Shown: positions 23,786 to 56,681, counted from the first letter of the stretch. The stretch: 64,000 nt of DNA from Escherichia coli (GCF_003334385.1 NZ_QOWN01000012.1), one strand, 5' to 3'. Numbers and translations are program-made. Notes: generated by a model from the letters alone, not told the origin.

Positions 23786-24526
23786 GTGAAGTTCAAAGTT
23801 ATCGCCCTGGCGGCATTAATGGGTATTAGCGGGATGGCAGCGCAGGCTAACGAATTGCCGGATGGACCGCATATTGTCACCTCCGGTACGGCAAGCGTGG
23901 ATGCGGTGCCAGACATTGCCACTCTTGCGATTGAAGTTAACGTGGCCGCGAAGGATGCCGCTACTGCCAAGAAACAGGCAGATGAGCGCGTCGCACAATA
24001 CATTTCCTTCCTTGAACTCAATCAGATCGCGAAAAAAGATATCAGCTCAGCGAACTTACGCACCCAGCCAGATTATGATTATCAGGATGGTAAAAGTATC
24101 CTTAAAGGCTACCGCGCTGTGAGAACGGTGGAAGTCACGCTCCGTCAGTTAGACAAACTGAATTCCTTGCTGGATGGCGCGCTGAAGGCGGGTCTTAACG
24201 AAATTCGTTCTGTGTCGCTGGGCGTGGCGCAGCCGGATGCCTATAAAGACAAAGCGCGTAAGGCAGCGATTGATAACGCGATTCATCAGGCGCAGGAACT
24301 GGCGAACGGCTTTCATCGTAAACTGGGGCCGGTATATAGCGTGCGCTACCATGTTTCCAACTATCAGCCCAGCCCAATGGTGCGGATGATGAAAGCCGAT
24401 GCCGCGCCGGTGTCCGCCCAGGAAACTTACGAGCAGGCCGCTATTCAGTTTGATGATCAGGTCGATGTGGTCTTCCAGTTAGAACCTGTGGATCAACAAC
24501 CCGCTAAAACACCTGCAGCACAATAA
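23786..24526 (+). CDS. yggE: periplasmic DUF541/SIMPL-family protein
   Basis: 246-aa ORF from GTG with N-terminal signal peptide MKFKVIALAALMGISGMAAQA. Confidence 0.8.
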   Translation: MKFKVIALAALMGISGMAAQANELPDGPHIVTSGTASVDAVPDIATLAIEVNVAAKDAATAKKQADERVAQYISFLELNQIAKKDISSANLRTQPDYDYQDGKSILKGYRAVRTVEVTLRQLDKLNSLLDGALKAGLNEIRSVSLGVAQPDAYKDKARKAAIDNAIHQAQELANGFHRKLGPVYSVRYHVSNYQPSPMVRMMKADAAPVSAQETYEQAAIQFDDQVDVVFQLEPVDQQPAKTPAAQ

Positions 24527-24692
24527 TATTTGTAGCCCGACGTATTCGTCGGGCTAATGCCTTTACCCGATATTGCCTCCTTTTTCTGTAATTTTCTGTA
24601 AAACCATGACGTAATCACCTATCTTTGCTCGCGGTTTCATCAAGGATAGGCTGACTGAAACGGTTAAGCGGACAAGGATGCGGGGGAGGGGG

Positions 24693-25589
24693 ATGGACAT
24701 TTTTATTTCGAAAAAGATGCGCAATTTCATTTTATTAGCGCAAACCAATAATATTGCCCGGGCGGCAGAAAAAATCCATATGACGGCTTCGCCATTTGGT
24801 AAAAGCATTGCCGCGCTGGAAGAACAAATTGGCTATACGCTATTTACCCGCAAAGATAATAATATCAGCCTCAATAAAGCCGGACAGGAACTGTATCAAA
24901 AACTGTTCCCGGTTTATCAACGGCTTTCTGCGATTGATAATGAAATCCATAACTCAGGGCGTCGTTCACGAGAAATTGTGATTGGCATAGATAATACTTA
25001 TCCGACAATTATTTTCGATCAGTTGATTAGTCTCGGAGATAAGTATGAAGGCGTGACCGCCCAGCCAGTTGAGTTCAGCGAAAATGGCGTTATCGATAAT
25101 CTTTTTGACCGCCAGTTAGATTTTATTATCTCCCCACAGCATGTATCTGCACGAGTTCAGGAACTGGAAAACCTGACTATCAGTGAACTACCACCGCTGC
25201 GATTAGGCTTTCTCGTTTCTCGCCGTTATGAAGAGCGACAAGAGCAAGAGCTGCTTCAGGAGCTGCCCTGGCTACAAATGCGCTTTCAGAACCGGGCCAA
25301 CTTCGAAGCAATGATTGATGCGAATATGCGACCTTGTGGGATCAATCCAACCATTATTTATCGTCCCTACAGTTTTATGGCCAAAATCAGCGCCGTGGAG
25401 CGCGGACATTTTCTGACGGTGATCCCGCATTTTGCCTGGCGACTGGTGAATCCGGCAACGCTGAAATATTTTGATGCACCGCACAGGCCGATGTATATGC
25501 AGGAATATCTTTATTCAATCAGAAATCATCGTTATACCGCCACGATGCTTCAGCATATTGCTGAAGATCGTGACGGGACGAGTCATTAA
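24693..25589 (+). CDS. ygfI: LysR-family transcriptional regulator
   Basis: ORF 24678..25589; start taken at MDIFISKKMRNFILLAQTNNIARAAEKIHMT (helix-turn-helix); converges on scpC with a 4-bp overlap. Confidence 0.75.
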   Translation: MDIFISKKMRNFILLAQTNNIARAAEKIHMTASPFGKSIAALEEQIGYTLFTRKDNNISLNKAGQELYQKLFPVYQRLSAIDNEIHNSGRRSREIVIGIDNTYPTIIFDQLISLGDKYEGVTAQPVEFSENGVIDNLFDRQLDFIISPQHVSARVQELENLTISELPPLRLGFLVSRRYEERQEQELLQELPWLQMRFQNRANFEAMIDANMRPCGINPTIIYRPYSFMAKISAVERGHFLTVIPHFAWRLVNPATLKYFDAPHRPMYMQEYLYSIRNHRYTATMLQHIAEDRDGTSH

Positions 25590-27064
25590 CCCAGCATCGA
25601 GCCGGTTGCAATTAAATTACGGTGTAAGTCGAAGACGTGGCTAAGATCGTGGTGAATATGTCCGCCAGGCGCATTTTCCAGATAGCGATGCAGATAATCC
25701 CGATACATAGGATGTGCACAATTATCAATGATAGTGCGGGCGCGTTGAAGCGGGGAAAGACCGCGCAGATCGGCGATCCCTTGTTCGGTGATGATCACTT
25801 TGACGCTGTGTTCGCTGTGATCAACATGGCTGCACATTGGCACGACGGTTGAGATCTTGCCTTCTTTAGCAATCGACGGGGCCATAAAGATCGACAGATA
25901 CGCGTTGCGTTCAAAATCACCGCTGCCGCCGATGCCGTTCATCAGATCGACCCCGGCTACGTGTGTTGAGTTGGCATGCCCGTAAATATCAAACTCCAGG
26001 CCGACGTTCAGAGCGATGACGCCCAGACGACGGATGATTTCCGGGTTATTGGAAATCTCCTGCGGACGCAACACAATGCGGCTGGCAAAGTAATCCATAT
26101 TGTCGTAAATCTTGCGCAGGGAATCGGCCGAGATTGTCAGGCTGGAGGCGCTGGCCCCGCTGATTTTGCCGGTTTCCAGTAAATGCACCACCGATTCCTG
26201 TAGCACTTCCGAATACATCATAAACGGAGGAATTACCGGGTTTTCCCCCAGACGCGCCATTACCGCATTATTGATATTGCCCACGCCACTTTGCAGCGGC
26301 AGAAATTCCGGCGGAATACGCCCATGCGCCATTTCCTGCAATAAGAACGTGACCACGTTATCGGCAATCTGCTGGCACATGGGATTTTGCTTATCCAGCA
26401 TATTACCGGCGTCGGGCAAGTTGGTTTCCACGACGGCGACAATCTTTTTCGGATCGATTTGCACATAGCGGGTACCGACGCGATCCATTGCATGGAAGAT
26501 CGACACGCTATTGCGCCGCGGTGGCGCGCCAGGAATCACAATATCCGCCAGTTCTGCAACGCGCGGATCGTGATAGTGATTGAGTTCAATGATCACTTTC
26601 TTCGCCCGCAGCAGCCAGGTCGGCGCATTACCGATCCCGCTGGTTAACCAGACTCGACCATCCGGTGCCAGTGCCGATGCTTCAATGACGGCAACATCAA
26701 TGTCGCCGAAGAAACCGTAATTGACCATTTGCGCCACTTCGCTCAAATGCAGGTCAACGAAACTCACCGCGCCCTGATTGATCTTTTTACGTAAACCGGA
26801 CGATGTTTGATATGGCGCACGCCAGGAAACAGCATCGGCGTCAGAAAGTACATCGTCAGCGGCGGCGCTGATTGACGCACCCGTCAGAAGGCGAATTTGA
26901 TACGGCTTTTTGGCCTCATGCTGTTCGTTAGCTCTGCGGGCAATCGCGGTGGGTAGGGCTTTCGGCGAACCCGCCGGGGTAAAGCCGCTAAATGCCACCA
27001 TGTCGTTATGCTGGATAATTTCTGCCGCTTCATTGGCGGTCATCCTTGTCCACTGAGTTTCCAT
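25586..27064 (-). CDS. scpC: propionyl-CoA:succinate CoA-transferase
   Basis: 492-aa ORF METQWTRMTANEAAEIIQHNDMVAF...; last gene of the sbm operon. Confidence 0.85.
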   Translation of the reverse strand: METQWTRMTANEAAEIIQHNDMVAFSGFTPAGSPKALPTAIARRANEQHEAKKPYQIRLLTGASISAAADDVLSDADAVSWRAPYQTSSGLRKKINQGAVSFVDLHLSEVAQMVNYGFFGDIDVAVIEASALAPDGRVWLTSGIGNAPTWLLRAKKVIIELNHYHDPRVAELADIVIPGAPPRRNSVSIFHAMDRVGTRYVQIDPKKIVAVVETNLPDAGNMLDKQNPMCQQIADNVVTFLLQEMAHGRIPPEFLPLQSGVGNINNAVMARLGENPVIPPFMMYSEVLQESVVHLLETGKISGASASSLTISADSLRKIYDNMDYFASRIVLRPQEISNNPEIIRRLGVIALNVGLEFDIYGHANSTHVAGVDLMNGIGGSGDFERNAYLSIFMAPSIAKEGKISTVVPMCSHVDHSEHSVKVIITEQGIADLRGLSPLQRARTIIDNCAHPMYRDYLHRYLENAPGGHIHHDLSHVFDLHRNLIATGSMLG

Positions 27065-27087
27065 TTTTACTCCTTCGTTCGCAGGGA

Positions 27088-27873
27088 TTAATGACCAACG
27101 AAATTAGGTTTACGTTTTTCGAGGAAAGCGTTCATCCCTTCCTGGTAATCTTCGCTGTCATACACCGCGCGGCGCATCCCCTGAATACGTTCAAATTCAT
27201 CGGAGTTCATGGTGTGTGCTTCGCCCAGTACACGCAGCTCTTCTTTGATAACGGCAATGGCTAACGGCGCTTTCTCAGAGATGTGGTGCGCCATTTGTAA
27301 GGTGAAATCTTCCAGTTCTTCCACTTCCACAACATGGTTGAGGATGCCGACAGCCAGCGCGCGCTGGGCGGTGATTGGCGAAGCGGTAAAAATCAGCTCT
27401 TTGACAATGTGGAAGCCCGCGTCGCGGGTCAGGTTGTGAATGCCGACCAGGTTATACGGGACGCCGAGGTTTACAGGCGTCATTGAGAAGGTTGAGGTAC
27501 TGGCGGCGATGATCAGATCGGAACTCATGATCATTTCAAATGCGCCACCCCAAACACTACCTTCCACCATCGAAATGATCGGTTTCGGGAATTTTTGGAT
27601 CATGCGGGTGATTTGACGCAATGGATCATCATAGGAGAGCGGATCGCGACCGCCAGACGGCAGTTCGTGAATATCGTGACCTGCGGAGAAGACTTTGGAT
27701 CCACTCGGTGCGCGCAAAATGATACAGCGAATTTCCGGCCGGTTGAGATCGCTTAACGCCTGCATAAGATCATCAATAAAGACTTTACTTAAGGCATTAA
27801 GTTTTCGGCCATAGTTAAACTCAATGACCGCCACTTTGTTGATAGTGACAACGTTAACATACTGATAAGACAT
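27088..27873 (-). CDS. scpB: methylmalonyl-CoA decarboxylase (crotonase fold)
   Basis: ORF 27088..27915 minus; N-terminus MSYQYVNVVTINKVAVIEFNYGRKLNAL begins 14 codons inside the ORF; 261 aa. Confidence 0.85.
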   Translation of the reverse strand: MSYQYVNVVTINKVAVIEFNYGRKLNALSKVFIDDLMQALSDLNRPEIRCIILRAPSGSKVFSAGHDIHELPSGGRDPLSYDDPLRQITRMIQKFPKPIISMVEGSVWGGAFEMIMSSDLIIAASTSTFSMTPVNLGVPYNLVGIHNLTRDAGFHIVKELIFTASPITAQRALAVGILNHVVEVEELEDFTLQMAHHISEKAPLAIAVIKEELRVLGEAHTMNSDEFERIQGMRRAVYDSEDYQEGMNAFLEKRKPNFVGH

Positions 27874-27883
27874 AAAAATTCCT

Positions 27884-28879
27884 TTAATCAAAATATTGCG
27901 TCTGGATAAATTCACTGAGCTGCCGCAGGCCGGTGCGCGGTGAGAGCGTATTGTTTTTGACCGCTAAAAGCGTCTGGCGGTAATAGCGATCGAAATCTTC
28001 ATTCGCGAACAGGTGATTCAGTACTTCTTCTTCGGTCTGCTTACGCAGCCATTCCACCGATTGTTGTTGCCGCACTTGTTGTAAACGACCACTGGCAGTT
28101 AGCGCGGTTTTGAAGTCGATGATGGCGTGCCAGATCTCATCGATTCCACGTTTTTCCAGTGCGCTACAAGTCAGAACCCGTGGCTGCCATTCGTCGTATT
28201 TACGTCGCAGAATATGCAGGGCACTCTCGTACATATGCCGGGCAATGGCGACATTGGTATGGTTATCGCCATCGTCTTTGTTGATAACGATCAGATCAGC
28301 CACTTCCATCAGCCCTTTTTTAATGCCCTGCAGATCATCGCCGCCACCGGCAATTTGCAACGAGATAAAACAGTCCACCATGCGGGCGACTTCTGTTTCC
28401 GACTGCCCGACGCCAACCGTTTCGACAATCACTACGTCATAACCCGCTGCTTCGCATAACAGCATTAATTCCCGCGCTCGCTGACTGGCACCGCCCAGAT
28501 GACCGGAGGATGGTACCGGGCGAATAAACGCCGCTTCGGCACGCGCCAGGTCATTCATGCGGGTTTTATCCCCGAGAATGCTACCGCCAGTGACCGGGCT
28601 GCTGGGATCGACCGCAATAACCGCGACCTTTAATCCCTCTCGAATCAACAACATGCCAAAGGCCTCAAGAAAGGTACTTTTCCCCGCGCCGGGGGTGCCG
28701 GTAACGCCCAGTCGCAGGGTGTTACCGCAGTACGGCATAATGGCATCAAGCAGCTGCGTACTTAGTGCCTGATGACGCGGGTGACGGCTTTCCACCAGCG
28801 TCATGGCCTGGGCGAGTGTGGCACGCTCACCCTGACGTAAGCGGCGAATACTTTCTGCCAGCGTGGCTTCATTAATCAT
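27884..28879 (-). CDS. argK: methylmalonyl-CoA mutase-associated GTPase (MeaB-like)
   Basis: 331-aa ORF; P-loop GTPGAGKST. Confidence 0.85.
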
Positions 28880-31016
28880 GATGCTGGCTTATCAGATTCA
28901 GTACGTCGCGCACACTGTCGAGCATAGGTGTACCTGGACCATAAATCGCCGCCACGCCGCGCTCTTGCAGGAAGGCGTAATCCTGCGGCGGAATGACGCC
29001 ACCCGCGACCACGCAGATATCTTCGCGTCCCCATTTTTTCAGCGCTTCGACCAGTTCCGGGATCAGCGTTTTATGACCGGCAGCCAGTGAGGATGCGCCC
29101 ACTACGTGAACGTCGTTTTCTACGGCCAGGCGGGCGATCTCTTCAGGTGTAGAGAACATCGGGCTTAAATCTACGTCGAAACCGAGATCGGAATAGGCGC
29201 TGGCGATCACTTTCGCGCCGCGATCGTGTCCATCCTGGCCCATCTTAGCGATCAGAATGCGCGGGCGACGACCATTGTCGGCAAGGAACTGCTCCGTTTG
29301 CGCAACAATGGCATCGAACTCGGAGGCCGATTTCTCAGACTGATGATAGCTTTGCGCAATCACGCCGGTAACACACTGGCTTGGCACCAGATAACGGTCG
29401 AAAGCGACTTCCAGCGCATCGGAAATTTCACCCAGGGTGGCGCGAACGCGAGCGGCATTAACAGCGGCAGCCAGCAGGTTTTCGTTATGCTGTGCGGCGT
29501 GAGTCAGGGCGTTCAACGCGGCGGTTACGGCGGCATCATCACGGGTGGCGCGAATGCGTTCCAGCGAAGCAATTTGCTCGTTACGCACCATCACGTTGTC
29601 GATCTCAAGTACATCGGTTTCGTCTTCGTGATCCAGTTTGTACTTGTTGACACCAACGATGACACGCTTGCCCTGGTCGATCAGCGACTGTTCGCGCGCT
29701 GAGGCCTCTTCGATCATTCGTTTTGGCAGACCTGCTTCGATCGCTTTCGCCATGCCACCGGCTTCGTCGATCTGTTGGATAATAGCTCTGGCTTGTTTGA
29801 CGATTTGATCGGTCAGCGACTCAATGTAATAGGATCCGGCCAGTGGATCGACGGTGCGGCAGAGTTCTGATTCTTCCTGGATGATGATCTGGGGGTTGCG
29901 GGCAATGCGTGCTGAGAAATCGGTAGGCAAACCAAGCGCTTCGTCAAAGGCGTTGGTATGCAGTGACTGAGTACCGCCCAGCGTCGCAGCCAGCGCTTCA
30001 ATGGTGGTGCGGATAACGTTGTTATACGGATCCTGTTCAGTCAGGCTCCAGCCTGAGGTCTGGCAGTGGGTACGCAGCGCCAGTGATTTCGGGTCCTGTG
30101 CGCCAAATCCACTGACCGCTTCGCTCCATAAATAACGTGCCGCACGCAACATGGCGACGTTCATAAACAGATCCATGCCGATGCCGAAGAAGAACGACAG
30201 GCGAGGAGCGAAGTCATCAATTTTCAGTCCGGCAGAGATTGCTGCTTTGATGTACTCAATCCCATCAGCGAGCGTAAATGCTACCTGCTGCACGCAGTTG
30301 GCACCCGCTTCACCCATGTGGTAACCGCTGATACTGATGGTATTAAATCGCGGCATGTTGCCGGAACACCAGGCGATGATGTCGGCGATAATGCGCATTG
30401 ACGGTTTTGGTGGGTAAATATAGGTGTTGCGGTAGAGGTACTCTTTGAGAATATCGTTTTGAATGGTGCCGGTCAGTTTATCAGGTGTAACACCTTGCTC
30501 TTCTGCGGCGACGATATAAAACGCCAGTACTGGTAGCACTGCGCCATTCATGGTCATCGAAACCGACATTTTATCCAGCGGGATCTGGTCGAACAGGACT
30601 TTCATATCTTCCACGGTGTCGATAGCGACGCCCGCTTTGCCGACGTCGCCCGCCACGCGCGGGTTATCGGAGTCGTAGCCACGGTGGGTGGCAAGGTCAA
30701 ACGCAACGGAAAGACCTTTTTGCCCGGCGGCCAGGTTACGGCGATAAAAAGCGTTGGACTCTTTTGCTGTTGAAAAACCAGCATACTGACGGATGGTCCA
30801 CGGTTGGGCGGTATACATAGTGGCACGCGGGCCACGAACGTAGGGCGGCAAACCAGGAAGGGTACCTGTCACCTCCAGATTATCGAGATCGGCTTCGGTA
30901 TACAGCGGCTTGATGGCGATCCCTTCCGCGGTTTGATGAACCAGCGAGTCGACAGTTTTCTCCCGACGGCTCAATTCCTTGTTGGCAAGCTGTTGCCACT
31001 CCTGCACGTTAGACAT
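28872..31016 (-). CDS. scpA: methylmalonyl-CoA mutase (B12-dependent)
   Basis: ORF 28872..31037 minus; N-terminus [20 protein letters not shown] begins 7 codons inside the ORF; 714 aa. Confidence 0.9.
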
Positions 31017-31218
31017 TATTTGCTCCGTAAAACGCAATCAAAATGAGGGTATTTGCGCCTACGGTGAGCTTTTTACGTGGGTTTGTCGCCAGCAAAAAAA
31101 TGCATTCAGACGTCGTTTTTTGCCGCCTGAGATTTGTCTATTTTGTGATGTGATTCAAGGAATACAAAAAGAAGTGAGGACAACGCCTGATATGTGCTAT
31201 CAGGCATTATTTGATGGA

Positions 31219-32112
31219 TTAATCCTGACGAAGGACTTTGTGACCATAATCGAGTAACGCATCAGTGACTTTACGCATCATGCGGCTTTCAGGAGCAAAG
31301 CGGTGCCAGTAGAGCATCCGTCGTTGAAATAGCCCAGGCGTTAAGTCAATCAGTTCACCGCTGGCCAGCTCTTTCTCGATTTGCAGGTGCGGGATCATAC
31401 AGCAGGTGGTGCCCTGGCGAGCAAGTTGTACGAACGCTTCTGAAGAATTAACGATATGGCAGGGCACGCTGCCTGGAGGCAGATCGAAGTTTTGCTGCAA
31501 AAAGGCCTGGTGCATATCGTCAAGATGGTCAAACGCGACCACTGGCGCTTTCAGTAATGCCGAACGCGTTACGCCGTTAGGGAAATATTTTTCGGCAAAG
31601 GGTTTTGAGCTGACGAACAGATAGTCGAGCGCACCAAGTTTATCGACAAGACAACTCGGCAGCGCCTGATGTTGAATACTCACCGCGCCGACCACTTCGC
31701 CGCGGCGCAGACGTTCCTGAGTGCGGGTTTCATCTTCTACCTGCAAGTTGAGGCGGATAGGCGAATCAGCCAACACAGGAGCCAGTGCAGGAAGCAACCA
31801 CGTCGCCAGACTGTCGGCGTTGACCGCCAGTGAAAGCAGCAGCGGAGTCGAACCGGTTTGTTCATCGCCCAGCCACTCTTCTTCCAGCAACTCCACCTGG
31901 CGCAGCAGTGCCAGCAGTTTTTGCCCTTGTTCCGTCGGGCGCGGCGGTACGGTACGCACCAACAGCGGCTGCCCGAACATATTTTCCAGTTGCTTAATGC
32001 GCTGTGAGACGGCTGATTGTGTAATGCACAGCTTTTGTGCCGCGCGCTCAAATCCTCGTTCACGTATCACCGCATCCAGTGCCTGTAATGTTCTGTAGTC
32101 CGGGCGTTTCAT
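31219..32112 (-). CDS. argP: LysR-family regulator ArgP (IciA)
   Basis: ORF 31219..32178 minus; N-terminus [28 protein letters not shown] begins 22 codons inside the ORF; 297 aa. Confidence 0.85.
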
Positions 32113-32253
32113 TGCTGTTGTCTGCTCCTGGTAAATGCTTTTTCCTGCACTATGACACAATTTTGTGTCAGGTTGCATATACCGAAGCCGTCGGCGGGTA
32201 ACATTTGTATCCGTGGTTAAAAGCGCAGCTTAAAAGATCAGGGATTTGCGCTA

Positions 32254-32484
32254 ATGCATTTCGCTCAGCGAGTTCGCGCCCTGGTTGTGTTGAATGGCGT
32301 GGCGTTATTGCCTCAATTTGCCTGTAAACAGGGGCTTGCGAACGGTGAACTGGTGCGCCTGTTTGCACCGTGGAGCGGCATACCCAGACCGTTGTATGCT
32401 TTATTTGCGGGGCGAAAGGGGATGCCTGCCATTGCGCGATATTTTATGGATGAGTTAACCACGCGGCTTGCCAACGGGGTCTGA
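32254..32484 (+). pseudogene. yqfE: LysR-family C-terminal remnant
   Basis: 76-codon ORF MHFAQRVRALVVLNGVALLPQFACKQGLANGELVRLFAPW... resembles the C-terminal substrate-binding part of a LysR regulator and has no N-terminal helix-turn-helix; sits between argP and rpiA. Confidence 0.4.
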
Positions 32485-32539
32485 ATCGCTTTTTTTGTAT
32501 ATAATGCGTGTGAAATTTCATACCACAGGCGAAACGATC

Positions 32540-33199
32540 ATGACGCAGGATGAATTGAAAAAAGCAGTAGGATGGGCGGCACTTCAGTATGTTCAGCCCG
32601 GCACCATTGTTGGTGTAGGTACAGGTTCCACCGCCGCACACTTTATTGACGCGCTCGGTACAATGAAAGGCCAGATTGAAGGGGCCGTTTCCAGTTCAGA
32701 TGCTTCCACTGAAAAACTGAAAAGCCTCGGCATTCACGTTTTTGATCTCAACGAAGTCGACAGCCTTGGCATCTACGTTGATGGCGCAGATGAAATCAAC
32801 GGCCACATGCAAATGATCAAAGGCGGCGGCGCGGCGCTGACCCGTGAAAAAATCATTGCTTCGGTTGCAGAAAAATTTATCTGTATTGCAGACGCTTCCA
32901 AGCAGGTTGATATTCTGGGTAAATTCCCGCTGCCAGTAGAAGTTATCCCGATGGCACGTAGTGCAGTGGCGCGTCAGCTGGTGAAACTGGGCGGTCGTCC
33001 GGAATACCGTCAGGGCGTGGTGACCGATAATGGCAACGTGATCCTCGACGTCCACGGCATGGAAATCCTTGACCCGATAGCGATGGAAAACGCCATAAAT
33101 GCGATTCCTGGCGTGGTGACTGTTGGCTTGTTTGCTAACCGTGGCGCGGACGTTGCGCTGATTGGCACACCTGACGGTGTCAAAACCATTGTGAAATGA
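32540..33199 (+). CDS. rpiA: ribose-5-phosphate isomerase A
   Basis: ORF 32468..33199; N-terminus [31 protein letters not shown] begins at 32540; 219 aa. Confidence 0.9.
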
Positions 33200-33454
33200 T
33201 CTGACGGGGGAACCTCCCCCGTTAAAAAAATTCTCTTCATTAAATTTGGTGACATGTGTCACGCTTTTACCAGGCAATTGTCGATTGCTCTAAATAAATC
33301 CTCTAAACCAGCATATTCATCCAAGAATTACCTTTGCGTGATATTTCCTCAACATCGCGACGCAAACGTTCATATTGCCGCAATATTATTTTTTGATATG
33401 TTGAAAGGCGGATGCAAATCCGCACACAACATTTCAAAAGACAGGATTGGGTAA

Positions 33455-34687
33455 ATGGCAAAGGTATCGCTGGAGAAAGACAAGATTAAGTTTCTGCTGG
33501 TAGAAGGCGTGCACCAAAAGGCGCTGGAAAGCCTTCGTGCAGCTGGTTACACCAACATCGAATTTCACAAAGGCGCGCTGGATGATGAACAATTAAAAGA
33601 ATCCATCCGCGATGCCCACTTCATCGGCCTGCGATCCCGTACCCATCTGACTGAAGACGTGATCAACGCCGCAGAAAAACTGGTCGCTATTGGCTGTTTC
33701 TGTATCGGAACAAACCAGGTTGATCTGGATGCGGCGGCAAAGCGCGGGATCCCGGTATTTAACGCACCGTTCTCAAATACGCGCTCTGTTGCGGAGCTGG
33801 TGATTGGCGAACTGCTGCTGCTATTGCGCGGCGTGCCGGAAGCCAATGCTAAAGCGCACCGTGGCGTGTGGAACAAACTGGCGGCGGGTTCTTTTGAAGC
33901 GCGCGGCAAAAAGCTGGGTATCATCGGCTACGGTCATATTGGTACGCAATTGGGCATTCTGGCTGAATCGCTGGGAATGTATGTTTACTTTTATGATATT
34001 GAAAATAAACTGCCGCTGGGCAACGCCACTCAGGTACAGCATCTTTCTGACCTGCTGAATATGAGCGATGTGGTGAGTCTGCATGTACCAGAGAATCCGT
34101 CCACCAAAAATATGATGGGCGCGAAAGAAATTTCACTAATGAAGCCCGGCTCGCTGCTGATTAATGCTTCGCGCGGTACTGTGGTGGATATTCCGGCGCT
34201 GTGTGATGCGCTGGCGAGCAAACATCTGGCGGGGGCGGCAATCGACGTATTCCCGACGGAACCGGCGACCAATAGCGATCCATTTACCTCTCCGCTGTGT
34301 GAATTCGACAACGTCCTTCTGACGCCACACATTGGCGGTTCGACTCAGGAAGCGCAGGAGAATATCGGCCTGGAAGTTGCGGGTAAATTGATCAAGTATT
34401 CTGACAATGGCTCAACGCTCTCTGCGGTGAACTTCCCGGAAGTCTCGCTGCCACTGCACGGTGGGCGTCGTCTGATGCACATCCACGAAAACCGTCCGGG
34501 CGTGCTAACTGCGCTGAACAAAATCTTCGCCGAGCAGGGCGTCAACATCGCCGCGCAATATCTGCAAACTTCCGCCCAGATGGGTTATGTGGTTATTGAT
34601 ATTGAAGCCGACGAAGACGTTGCCGAAAAAGCGCTGCAGGCAATGAAAGCTATTCCGGGTACCATTCGCGCCCGTCTGCTGTACTAA
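33455..34687 (+). CDS. serA: D-3-phosphoglycerate dehydrogenase
   Basis: 410-aa ORF MAKVSLEKDKIKFLLVEGVHQKALESLRAAGYTNIEFHKGALDDEQLKE... Confidence 0.95.
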   Translation: MAKVSLEKDKIKFLLVEGVHQKALESLRAAGYTNIEFHKGALDDEQLKESIRDAHFIGLRSRTHLTEDVINAAEKLVAIGCFCIGTNQVDLDAAAKRGIPVFNAPFSNTRSVAELVIGELLLLLRGVPEANAKAHRGVWNKLAAGSFEARGKKLGIIGYGHIGTQLGILAESLGMYVYFYDIENKLPLGNATQVQHLSDLLNMSDVVSLHVPENPSTKNMMGAKEISLMKPGSLLINASRGTVVDIPALCDALASKHLAGAAIDVFPTEPATNSDPFTSPLCEFDNVLLTPHIGGSTQEAQENIGLEVAGKLIKYSDNGSTLSAVNFPEVSLPLHGGRRLMHIHENRPGVLTALNKIFAEQGVNIAAQYLQTSAQMGYVVIDIEADEDVAEKALQAMKAIPGTIRARLLY

Positions 34688-49384: not shown

Positions 49385-49566
49385 CCTTTGTAGGCCTGAT
49401 AAGACGCGCCAGCGTCGCATCAGGCATCGGAGCACAACTGCCGGATTCGGCGTGAACGCCTTATCCGATCTACGGGCCTCGTCCCTGTTGTGATAAAGGC
49501 ATCAAATCCCAGACATGATAAGACGCGCCAGCGTCGCATCAGGCGATAAATGCCTGATGCGATAAA
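49385..49566. repeat. BIME cluster: at least three REP units in alternating orientation
   Basis: REP cores at about 49391-49426, 49441-49472 and 49515-49545 between convergent yqfA and ygfZ. Confidence 0.7.
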
Positions 49567-55582: not shown

Positions 55583-56681
55583 ATGTTTGAAATTAATCCG
55601 GTAAATAATCGCATTCAGGACCTCACGGAACGCTCCGACGTTCTTAGGGGGTATCTTTGACTACGACGCCAAGAAAGAGCGTCTGGAAGAAGTAAACGCC
55701 GAGCTGGAACAGCCGGATGTCTGGAACGAACCCGAACGCGCACAGGCGCTGGGTAAAGAGCGTTCCTCCCTCGAAGCCGTTGTCGACACCCTCGACCAAA
55801 TGAAACAGGGGCTGGAAGATGTTTCTGGTCTGCTGGAACTGGCTGTAGAAGCTGACGACGAAGAAACCTTTAACGAAGCCGTTGCTGAACTCGACGCCCT
55901 GGAAGAAAAACTGGCGCAGCTTGAGTTCCGCCGTATGTTCTCTGGCGAATATGACAGCGCCGACTGCTACCTCGATATTCAGGCGGGGTCTGGCGGTACG
56001 GAAGCACAGGACTGGGCGAGCATGCTTGAGCGTATGTATCTGCGCTGGGCAGAATCGCGTGGTTTCAAAACTGAAATCATCGAAGAGTCGGAAGGTGAAG
56101 TGGCGGGTATTAAATCCGTGACGATCAAAATCTCCGGCGATTACGCTTACGGCTGGCTGCGTACAGAAACCGGCGTTCACCGCCTGGTGCGTAAAAGCCC
56201 GTTTGACTCCGGCGGTCGTCGCCACACGTCGTTCAGCTCCGCGTTTGTTTATCCGGAAGTTGATGATGATATTGATATCGAAATCAACCCGGCGGATCTG
56301 CGCATTGACGTTTATCGCGCGTCCGGCGCGGGCGGTCAGCACGTTAACCGTACCGAATCTGCGGTGCGTATTACCCACATCCCGACCGGGATCGTGACCC
56401 AGTGCCAGAACGACCGTTCCCAGCACAAGAACAAAGATCAGGCCATGAAGCAGATGAAAGCGAAGCTTTATGAACTGGAGATGCAGAAGAAAAATGCCGA
56501 GAAACAGGCGATGGAAGATAACAAATCCGACATCGGCTGGGGCAGCCAGATTCGTTCTTATGTCCTTGATGACTCCCGCATTAAAGATCTGCGCACCGGG
56601 GTAGAAACCCGCAACACGCAGGCCGTGCTGGACGGCAGCCTGGATCAATTTATCGAAGCAAGTTTGAAAGCAGGGTTATGA
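55583..56681 (+). CDS. prfB: peptide chain release factor 2, expressed through a programmed +1 frameshift: join(55583..55657, 55659..56681)
   Basis: Frame 0 gives [25 protein letters not shown] then an in-frame TGA at 55658-55660; the +1 frame continues [11 protein letters not shown]... into ORF 55800..56681 with the GGQ motif; total 365 aa. Confidence 0.9.
55646..55661 (+). other. prfB +1 frameshift site: internal SD-like AGGGGG, then TAT CTT TGA C
   Basis: AGGGGG at 55646-55651, 3 nt before the CUU slippery codon (55655-55657) and in-frame UGA (55658-55660). Confidence 0.85.

Follow-up and report, generated by a model that had tools for sequence, protein, structure and literature searches.

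The 64,000-nucleotide stretch of Escherichia coli DNA considered here (GCF_003334385.1, NZ_QOWN01000012.1; hereafter the window, with positions counted from its first letter) carries the published 'sleeping beauty mutase' (sbm) operon, scpA-meaB-scpB-scpC, together with srsR, a LysR-type regulator gene that converges on the last gene of the operon. The locus is already known. Our best overall explanation, in which we have high confidence, is that this is the silent E. coli operon with its convergent regulator gene, and that the mutase of the source strain is probably impaired.

The genes were identified with the help of the RefSeq annotation of the matching region of K-12 MG1655. Compared with MG1655, the window has only 10 substitutions and a single indel, of 1 bp, in its 64 kb, and an 8-kb query spanning the locus, which finds matches in all 5426 complete E. 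coli genomes, differs from MG1655 at 3 positions. The annotation of the region lists srsR, scpC, scpB, meaB, scpA and argP, and the window is identical to the K-12 sbm operon (sbm/scpA-ygfD/argK-ygfG/scpB-ygfH/scpC) with ygfI/srsR in its genes, their order, their junctions and the 4-bp convergent overlap. Unlike K-12, it has two substitutions in ScpA, C195Y and T375P, a poly-T tract upstream of scpA that is T7 rather than T8, and an alanine at codon 246 of prfB. The gene identities and coordinates originally predicted from the sequence alone are correct to the base, as judged from the open reading frame (ORF) listing, the RefSeq annotation and NCBIfam. The same prediction had described overlapping or 10-23-bp junctions within the operon and a 4-bp stop/stop overlap between ygfI and scpC; this geometry is right, with an 8-bp scpA/meaB overlap, gaps of 10 nt and 23 nt, and a common TTAA at the convergent end. 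The genes and junctions are the following.

24693-25589, plus strand: srsR (ygfI, dhfA), LysR-type regulator of 298 amino acids (NCBIfam NF047842, RefSeq; Citrobacter homology begins at the ATG at 24693)
25586-25589: 4-bp palindromic TTAA stop/stop overlap, formed by the srsR TAA (25587-25589) and the scpC TAA (25588-25586), read from the sequence
25586-27064, minus strand: scpC (ygfH), propionyl-CoA:succinate coenzyme A (CoA)-transferase of 492 amino acids (TIGR03458, annotation)
27065-27087, minus strand: scpB-scpC spacer of 23 nt, with a Shine-Dalgarno AAGGAG 7 nt ahead of the ATG, read from the sequence
27088-27873, minus strand: scpB (ygfG), methylmalonyl-CoA decarboxylase of the crotonase fold, 261 amino acids (NF008506)
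27874-27883, minus strand: meaB-scpB spacer of 10 nt, AGGAATTTTT, read from the sequence
27884-28879, minus strand: meaB (argK/ygfD), G-protein chaperone of the mutase, 331 amino acids, P-loop GTPGAGKST (NF006958, translation)
28872-28879, minus strand: scpA/meaB overlap of 8 bp, ATGATTAA, read from the sequence
28872-31016, minus strand: scpA (sbm), B12-dependent methylmalonyl-CoA mutase of 714 amino acids, with DGHDRG (His597) (NF006944, human MMUT match)

Longer starts that a mechanical ORF search would allow, namely TTG 31037 for scpA, GTG 27915 for scpB and ATG 24678 for srsR, are unsupported. Profile alignments back the shorter starts (1-261/261 for ScpB, 2-295 to 1-294 for SrsR), and the ATG at 24678 can be set aside because the Citrobacter homology of srsR begins exactly at 24693.

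Assignment of the five proteins relied on NCBIfam equivalog and subfamily models with curated cut-offs, and all five match full length, above cut-off and far beyond chance; the alignments to methylmalonyl-CoA mutase, MeaB, a crotonase-fold decarboxylase and a CoA-transferase that the original prediction had called for thus bear out its assignments. ScpA reaches 1246 bits against NF006944 (cut-off 876) over residues 5-713, with the N-terminal (beta/alpha)8 substrate domain matched by TIGR00641 over 27-547 and the B12-binding domain by TIGR00640 over 583-713. It also matches mutase structures from human, M. tuberculosis and P. shermanii, with E values of 1e-277 to 1e-269 (human MMUT, E = 1.8e-277). 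With residue numbers taken from the alignment, the cobalt-ligand motif DxHxxG is present as DGHDRG, its His597 aligning with human His627, and Arg196 aligns with human Arg228, which corresponds to the arginine that binds the substrate in P. shermanii, Arg207. MeaB scores 494 bits against NF006958 (cut-off 329), carries GTPGAGKST and is encoded by a gene that overlaps scpA by 8 bp, as expected of the mutase chaperone. ScpB scores 487 bits against NF008506 (cut-off 257) over 1-261/261, while generic enoyl-CoA hydratase models give it at most 162 bits, under their own cut-offs. ScpC is placed in the YgfH subfamily by TIGR03458 (753 bits, cut-off 659, residues 4-490). SrsR matches the equivalog model NF047842 with 635 bits (cut-off 425), and the helix-turn-helix (HTH) domain HTH_1 (PF00126) and the LysR substrate-binding domain (PF03466) are both found on an identical cluster representative.

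Among the closest known systems are human MMUT-MMAA, P. shermanii MutAB and M. extorquens MeaB: ScpA is homologous to the mutases over its full length, shares DxHxxG and is followed directly downstream by a gene for a P-loop G protein. The P. shermanii mutase is an alpha-beta heterodimer, however, whereas E. coli ScpA is a single chain of the alpha type, and where the Wood-Werkman cycle employs an epimerase and a transcarboxylase, the partners of ScpA are a CoA-transferase and a decarboxylase that does not depend on biotin (PMC5512728).

The pathway, its silence and the mutase of this strain

In the pathway formed by these proteins, ScpA with adenosyl-B12, helped by the G protein MeaB, converts succinyl-CoA to methylmalonyl-CoA, which ScpB decarboxylates to propionyl-CoA, and ScpC then moves CoA from propionyl-CoA to succinate and releases propionate. 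The enzymology of this route was reportedly established by Haller et al. in 2000. All four genes are likely to share a single transcript that begins at a weak promoter in the 200-bp spacer between argP and scpA, the best candidate for this promoter being GCGACA-17-CACCGT (6/12 match), and the conserved 8-bp scpA/meaB overlap may couple translation of the mutase to that of its chaperone. We infer that the operon is silent in the laboratory because this promoter is weak and because B12 is imported, not made, by E. coli.

Silence has been reported for E. coli laboratory strains, and the proteins are active when overexpressed (PMC3850637, PMC5512728), so the cryptic reputation that the original prediction attached to the operon is right. 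It had also called the succinate-to-propionate route complete, which is contested: E. coli is unable to make B12 (PMC3850637), and the native operon has been argued to be incomplete, given that the product of the mutase is (R)-methylmalonyl-CoA and the decarboxylase requires the (S)-enantiomer, with methylmalonyl-CoA epimerase, absent from E. coli, having to be added for propionate to be made from glucose (PMC5512728). No epimerase is annotated in the 64-kb window. The quality of the promoter region, 31017-31218, had been singled out for attention; a sigma-70 scan of it finds no site matching at 9/12 or better, which fits the reported silence. An Rfam scan of 23000-34000 at E <= 1 returns no match, neither a B12 riboswitch nor any other known leader.

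Within the 8-kb region, scpA accounts for two of the three positions that differ from K-12, and both changes are missense.

29892-29894, minus strand: ScpA codon 375, CCC (Pro) where K-12 has ACC (Thr), with the substitution at 29894
30432-30434, minus strand: ScpA codon 195, TAC (Tyr) where K-12 has TGC (Cys), with the substitution at 30433

Both alleles are rare, Pro375 occurring in 5/4268 complete E. coli genomes and Tyr195 giving one full-length exact match among 3442 E. coli genomes, and M7424, which is closest to the window among complete genomes, encodes the K-12 form of ScpA. Conservation was assessed from 150 diverse representatives of the family, of which 124 were informative at position 375 and 138 at position 195. 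Threonine is found at position 375 in 109 of the 124 and proline in none, while position 195 is occupied by V, A, S, T, G or L and in none of the 138 by tyrosine. Cys195 directly precedes Arg196, the residue that aligns with the substrate-binding arginine. Residue 375 lies within a 15-residue block that human MMUT shares unchanged with the common, Thr375 form of E. coli ScpA, and the AlphaFold model of ScpA (mean predicted local distance difference test score, pLDDT, 92.8) places it in the middle of a predicted helix, 366-382. Because two rare substitutions fall at conserved positions, C195Y and T375P are probably damaging, leaving a mutase that would be impaired despite its open frame. No stop and no frameshift was found in the scpA, meaB, scpB and scpC frames; the statement that all four are intact therefore holds for the frames themselves, and the function that it implied is doubtful for ScpA.

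Sequencing noise or deliberately introduced changes as the source of the differences from K-12 were considered and ruled out. In yqgG, speA, pgk, dsbC and uacT the differences, five in all, are without exception synonymous, the prfB allele is a natural one and the exact ScpA protein recurs in public drafts. Codon 246 of prfB (56319-56321) reads GCG, the wild-type alanine, the ACG (Thr) being specific to K-12, which makes the source of the window a very close relative of K-12 rather than K-12 itself. Outside scpA, the sole non-synonymous differences are this codon and codon 214 of endA (879), which is His here and Arg in K-12. The carriers of Pro375 (GGGTG to GGGGG on the plus strand) are five unrelated complete genomes, two of them O157:H7, two from cattle and one from a frog, a spread that suggests recurrent mutation or a sequence-context-specific error.

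Several points weigh against the explanation given at the outset. The completeness of the pathway is contested, with the epimerase missing (PMC5512728); the operon has been lost from ~21% of E. coli genomes, so that some lineages can do without it; for C195Y and T375P, conservation and helix position are the only basis of the predicted effect; and the exact double-variant ScpA is present in several public draft genomes, which marks a real lineage and not necessarily a null allele.

Selection and loss within E. coli

The silence of the operon could be that of a relic in the course of being lost, never usefully expressed in E. coli, with frames that are merely not yet broken. Such a history would agree with its inactivity in laboratory strains and with a pathway that has neither an epimerase nor B12 synthesis, and the ScpA of the window shows two rare non-conservative changes where the five changes listed above in other genes are synonymous. 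It would also agree with the extent of loss, as 1148/5426 complete genomes have less than 80% of the region covered. The deletion junction, from window position 25740 to ~30089 (~4.3 kb), is identical in all five such strains examined, sequence type 131 (ST131) among them, and leaves the first third of scpA fused to the final 150 nt of scpC, with the TTAA overlap with srsR kept; the common junction marks a single ancestral deletion event.

Nevertheless, we regard the relic as quite improbable. In comparisons with four divergent strains that keep the operon, scpA, meaB, scpB and scpC have ratios of non-synonymous to synonymous polymorphism (pN/pS) of 0.00-0.09, and the value for scpA against O55:H7 is 0.16, so that all four genes stay within 0.00-0.16 over five divergent operon-intact lineages. 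At least five further genera, moreover, retain the whole module with its junctions built alike, and the overexpressed proteins are active (PMC3850637, PMC5512728). At the level of sequence comparison, the ratios show that the operon genes are under purifying selection, which would keep the operon in most E. coli lineages; it is cryptic in the laboratory and not a relic.

The module in other genera and SrsR as its candidate regulator

Nine loci outside E. coli were examined, from Citrobacter amalonaticus, C. freundii, Yersinia, Hafnia, Sodalis, Acerihabitans and Kosakonia, together with two designated L021 and L022, and at least five other named genera are represented. In every one of them scpA-meaB-scpB-scpC is met at its scpC end by a convergent SrsR gene, placed tail-to-tail with anything from a gap of 3 nt to an overlap of 30 bp as called, and 9/9 also have the 8-bp scpA/meaB overlap. 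The SrsR orthologues form a narrow family of 61-92% identity, those of the nine loci being 62-92% identical, and the taxa that have a ScpB of at least 74% identity are largely those that have SrsR. Counting E. coli, the module occupies 7 chromosomal contexts, with flanking genes that differ by genus.

E. coli: yggE and argP
Citrobacter: modE and modF
Yersinia: yniB and a fructosamine kinase gene
Hafnia: an AI-2E transporter gene and an intimin-like gene
Sodalis and Acerihabitans: a major facilitator superfamily (MFS) transporter gene and an alcohol dehydrogenase gene

The limits of the shared segment were read against two Citrobacter loci, where a blastn comparison of the window finds homology from 31162 to 24693 only, at ~79.5% identity, with unrelated flanks; this span is precisely the five genes and 146 nt upstream of scpA. 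Related operons outside the SrsR clade have no convergent regulator. A LysR gene upstream of one such operon, on a metagenomic contig, was considered and is not an SrsR orthologue, only its HTH being similar (E = 3e-07). The L022 record, labelled Aeromonas sp. MdU4, has a B12-related neighbourhood, with genes for a microcompartment protein, EutP, EutQ and a cobalamin adenosyltransferase (14956-16897) adjoining the module. The synteny at the level of the module is the sole part of our analysis that exceeds what we found in the literature.

Between scpA and the next gene, the window contains the following.

31061-31125, minus strand: non-coding block conserved across genera in alignments of 8 taxa, putatively functional
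31094-31100, minus strand: poly-T tract of the right repeat arm, T7 here and T8 in K-12
31185-31205, minus strand: hairpin GCCTGATA-GCACA-TATCAGGC, just past the argP stop and outside the five-gene module
31219-32112, minus strand: argP (annotation)

The conserved block holds an inverted repeat, GCAAAAAA (31116-31123) and TTTTTTTGC (31092-31100), followed by promoter-like elements, a -35-like GCGACA (31084-31089) and, after a 17-nt spacer, a -10-like CACCGT (31061-31066). The hexamer at this distance from GCGACA keeps the form xAxxxT: E. coli has CACCGT, Citrobacter CATCGT, Kosakonia TACTAT and L021 TATTAT. In L021 a promoter scan flags the homologous GCGACA-17-TATTAT at 9/12. Eight of the nine upstream regions compared contain two invariant blocks separated by a spacer of variable sequence and near-constant length, CGGCAAAAAAYGA ... 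T6-7 GC NN GCGACAA. Relative to the putative GCGACA-17-CACCGT promoter, the repeat arms are predicted to lie at -69 to -62 and -46 to -38 (~-65 and ~-42). The pattern GCAAAA-N15-25-TTTTGC has a single match in the 64 kb, the scpA upstream repeat itself, against 0.16 expected. The exact 81-mer with T7 occurs in 458/5426 genomes, and the distance between the arms is 1 nt shorter in the window than in K-12, Citrobacter, Kosakonia, L021 and L022. A sigma-54 promoter in the argP-scpA spacer was also considered, and rejected since by eye the -24/-12 spacing is unfit and not conserved. The hairpin at 31185-31205 is probably a weak argP terminator; a T-run follows it only at a distance, so some read-through from argP is possible.

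Current descriptions present SrsR (YgfI/DhfA) as a stationary-phase stress regulator or as a regulator of dhaKLM. It is conceivable, and we put this forward tentatively from comparative sequence evidence, that SrsR is the module's own LysR regulator, which would bind at GCAAAAAA-N15-TTTTTTTGC and activate scpA-scpC together with a co-inducer, in which case the operon would sleep because the inducer is absent in the laboratory. The invariant tail-to-tail association in the nine loci and seven contexts, the coincidence of ScpB-bearing and SrsR-bearing taxa, and the Citrobacter homology that runs exactly from srsR through the 146 nt upstream of scpA all point in this direction, as do the two invariant upstream blocks, which are positioned like the classical LysR regulatory and activation binding sites, and the uniqueness of the repeat in the window. 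The core of the repeat, TTTTGC, is also the stretch that is kept best in the SrsR box as published, TCAGATTTTGC. Furthermore, srsR differs between operon-intact lineages by 0 non-synonymous and 43 synonymous changes and has 4-8 non-synonymous changes in operon-deleted strains, and the two published SrsR/YgfI target sets have no gene in common, which leaves the regulon unsettled.

The published binding and expression work nevertheless speaks against such a role. Genomic SELEX (systematic evolution of ligands by exponential enrichment) identified 10 sites for the purified protein, scp not being among them, and ChIP-exo (chromatin immunoprecipitation with exonuclease treatment) gave only dhaK and mdtL as targets. 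SrsR binding at the scpA promoter has never been reported; a published RNA sequencing (RNA-seq) study of a ygfI deletion leaves the scp genes unmentioned. The published box, TCAGATTTTGC, allowing up to 2 mismatches, has 24 matches in the window against 22.8 expected, which is chance level, and none in the scpA spacer. SrsR resembles LysR regulators of adjacent catabolic operons in its strict synteny and in the two conserved blocks at ~-65 and ~-42 of a weak promoter, but these genes are usually divergent from their targets at the 5' end, whereas srsR is convergent at the 3' end, and the GCGACA-17-CACCGT promoter on which SrsR would act is itself putative. The decay of srsR alongside the operon is mixed: the gene is intact in 4/5 deletion strains and has two internal stops in ST131, where the operon is deleted, yet it has one internal stop in O55:H7 RM12579, where the operon is intact. 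The two pseudogenes lie at 1795-2691 of the ST131 locus L004 and at 394-1290 of the O55:H7 locus L026.

The conserved block might instead act on RNA, as an intrinsic terminator, insulator or leader attenuator that shields scpA from upstream read-through, although we consider this unlikely. In Kosakonia the block does form a textbook terminator, with an 11-bp stem, 7 G-C pairs, T7 and a folding energy of -20 to -23 kcal/mol; E. coli has a possible 7-bp stem, TCAGGCG/CGTCTGA, five nt ahead of the T-run; and stem sequences vary among genera while the T-run is invariant. The hairpins in Citrobacter, L022, Yersinia and Hafnia are weak, however (-5 to -10 kcal/mol), the RNAalifold consensus is -6.9 kcal/mol with an unfavourable covariation term and amounts to essentially invariant pairing of an A-run with the T-run, and a terminator scan of the E. 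coli sequence finds none at the block. Invariant sequence in both arms and an invariant GCGACA are a better fit to recognition of DNA than to RNA structure.

Extending the proposal that SrsR regulates the operon, we offer the following speculative model, which we hold with some reserve. The genes scpA-meaB-scpB-scpC and srsR would constitute a transferable module of ~6.5 kb, found at different sites in Escherichia, Citrobacter, Kosakonia, Yersinia, Hafnia and Sodalis/Acerihabitans, with SrsR as its dedicated regulator acting at the repeat upstream of a deliberately weak scpA promoter, and the tail-to-tail overlap would add antisense feedback.

The srsR-scpC junction and implications

Within the reach of the srsR and scpC stop codons there is no hairpin plus U-tract stronger than ~-13 kcal/mol, and the best candidates, at ~-13 kcal/mol or weaker, are located within the partner gene. 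As the stop codons are shared and no strong intrinsic terminator follows either of them, each transcript must be expected to run into the partner gene. This agrees with published data, in which ExcludonFinder lists scpC-ygfI among 165 convergent excludons of MG1655, with overlap in at least 50% of 58 RNA-seq samples (PMC12288877). Of the convergent interference that had been suggested, the overlapping transcription is thus borne out, and interference between srsR and scpC transcription itself is plausible from the arrangement of the genes; the operon being nearly silent, any such influence would come chiefly from srsR transcription that extends into scpC. Like other convergent excludons, the pair has no intergenic terminator, its coding sequences overlapping by 4 bp. 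Unlike convergent excludons generally, it is the coding sequences themselves that overlap, and the arrangement is kept across genera. The strain used for the published ChIP-exo experiment carries a C-terminal tag (ygfI-8myc) that is necessarily placed at the shared TTAA (PMC8464067 supplement), and would by our inference alter the 3' end of scpC as well.

Two further features of the window lie outside the module. Between argP and rpiA, a 231-bp coding sequence annotated as a 'LysR substrate-binding domain' (32254-32484, plus strand) is a deletion scar, as strain F344 has at the same site an intact LysR gene and a divergent operon for an azoreductase, a DUF1471 protein and a ferric-reductase-like protein (8286-11576 of the F344 locus L005). 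A 29-bp exact direct repeat in the trhA-ygfZ spacer, with copies at 49397-49425 and 49516-49544, 119 bp apart, is probably a repetitive extragenic palindromic (REP)-type element.

The locus itself is a textbook, much-engineered E. coli operon, for which the value of the present analysis is confirmation. An 'intact' sbm operon may still hold a probably crippled mutase, however, which is relevant to cloning from non-K-12 strains. Purifying selection, together with deletion in about a fifth of E. coli, including ST131, argues for a niche-dependent role and not for a dead relic. The co-inheritance of SrsR and the conserved upstream element offer a handle on the 25-year-old question of how the operon is induced and call the current SrsR/YgfI names into question; if SrsR is indeed the regulator, identifying its co-inducer would 'wake' the sleeping beauty mutase.

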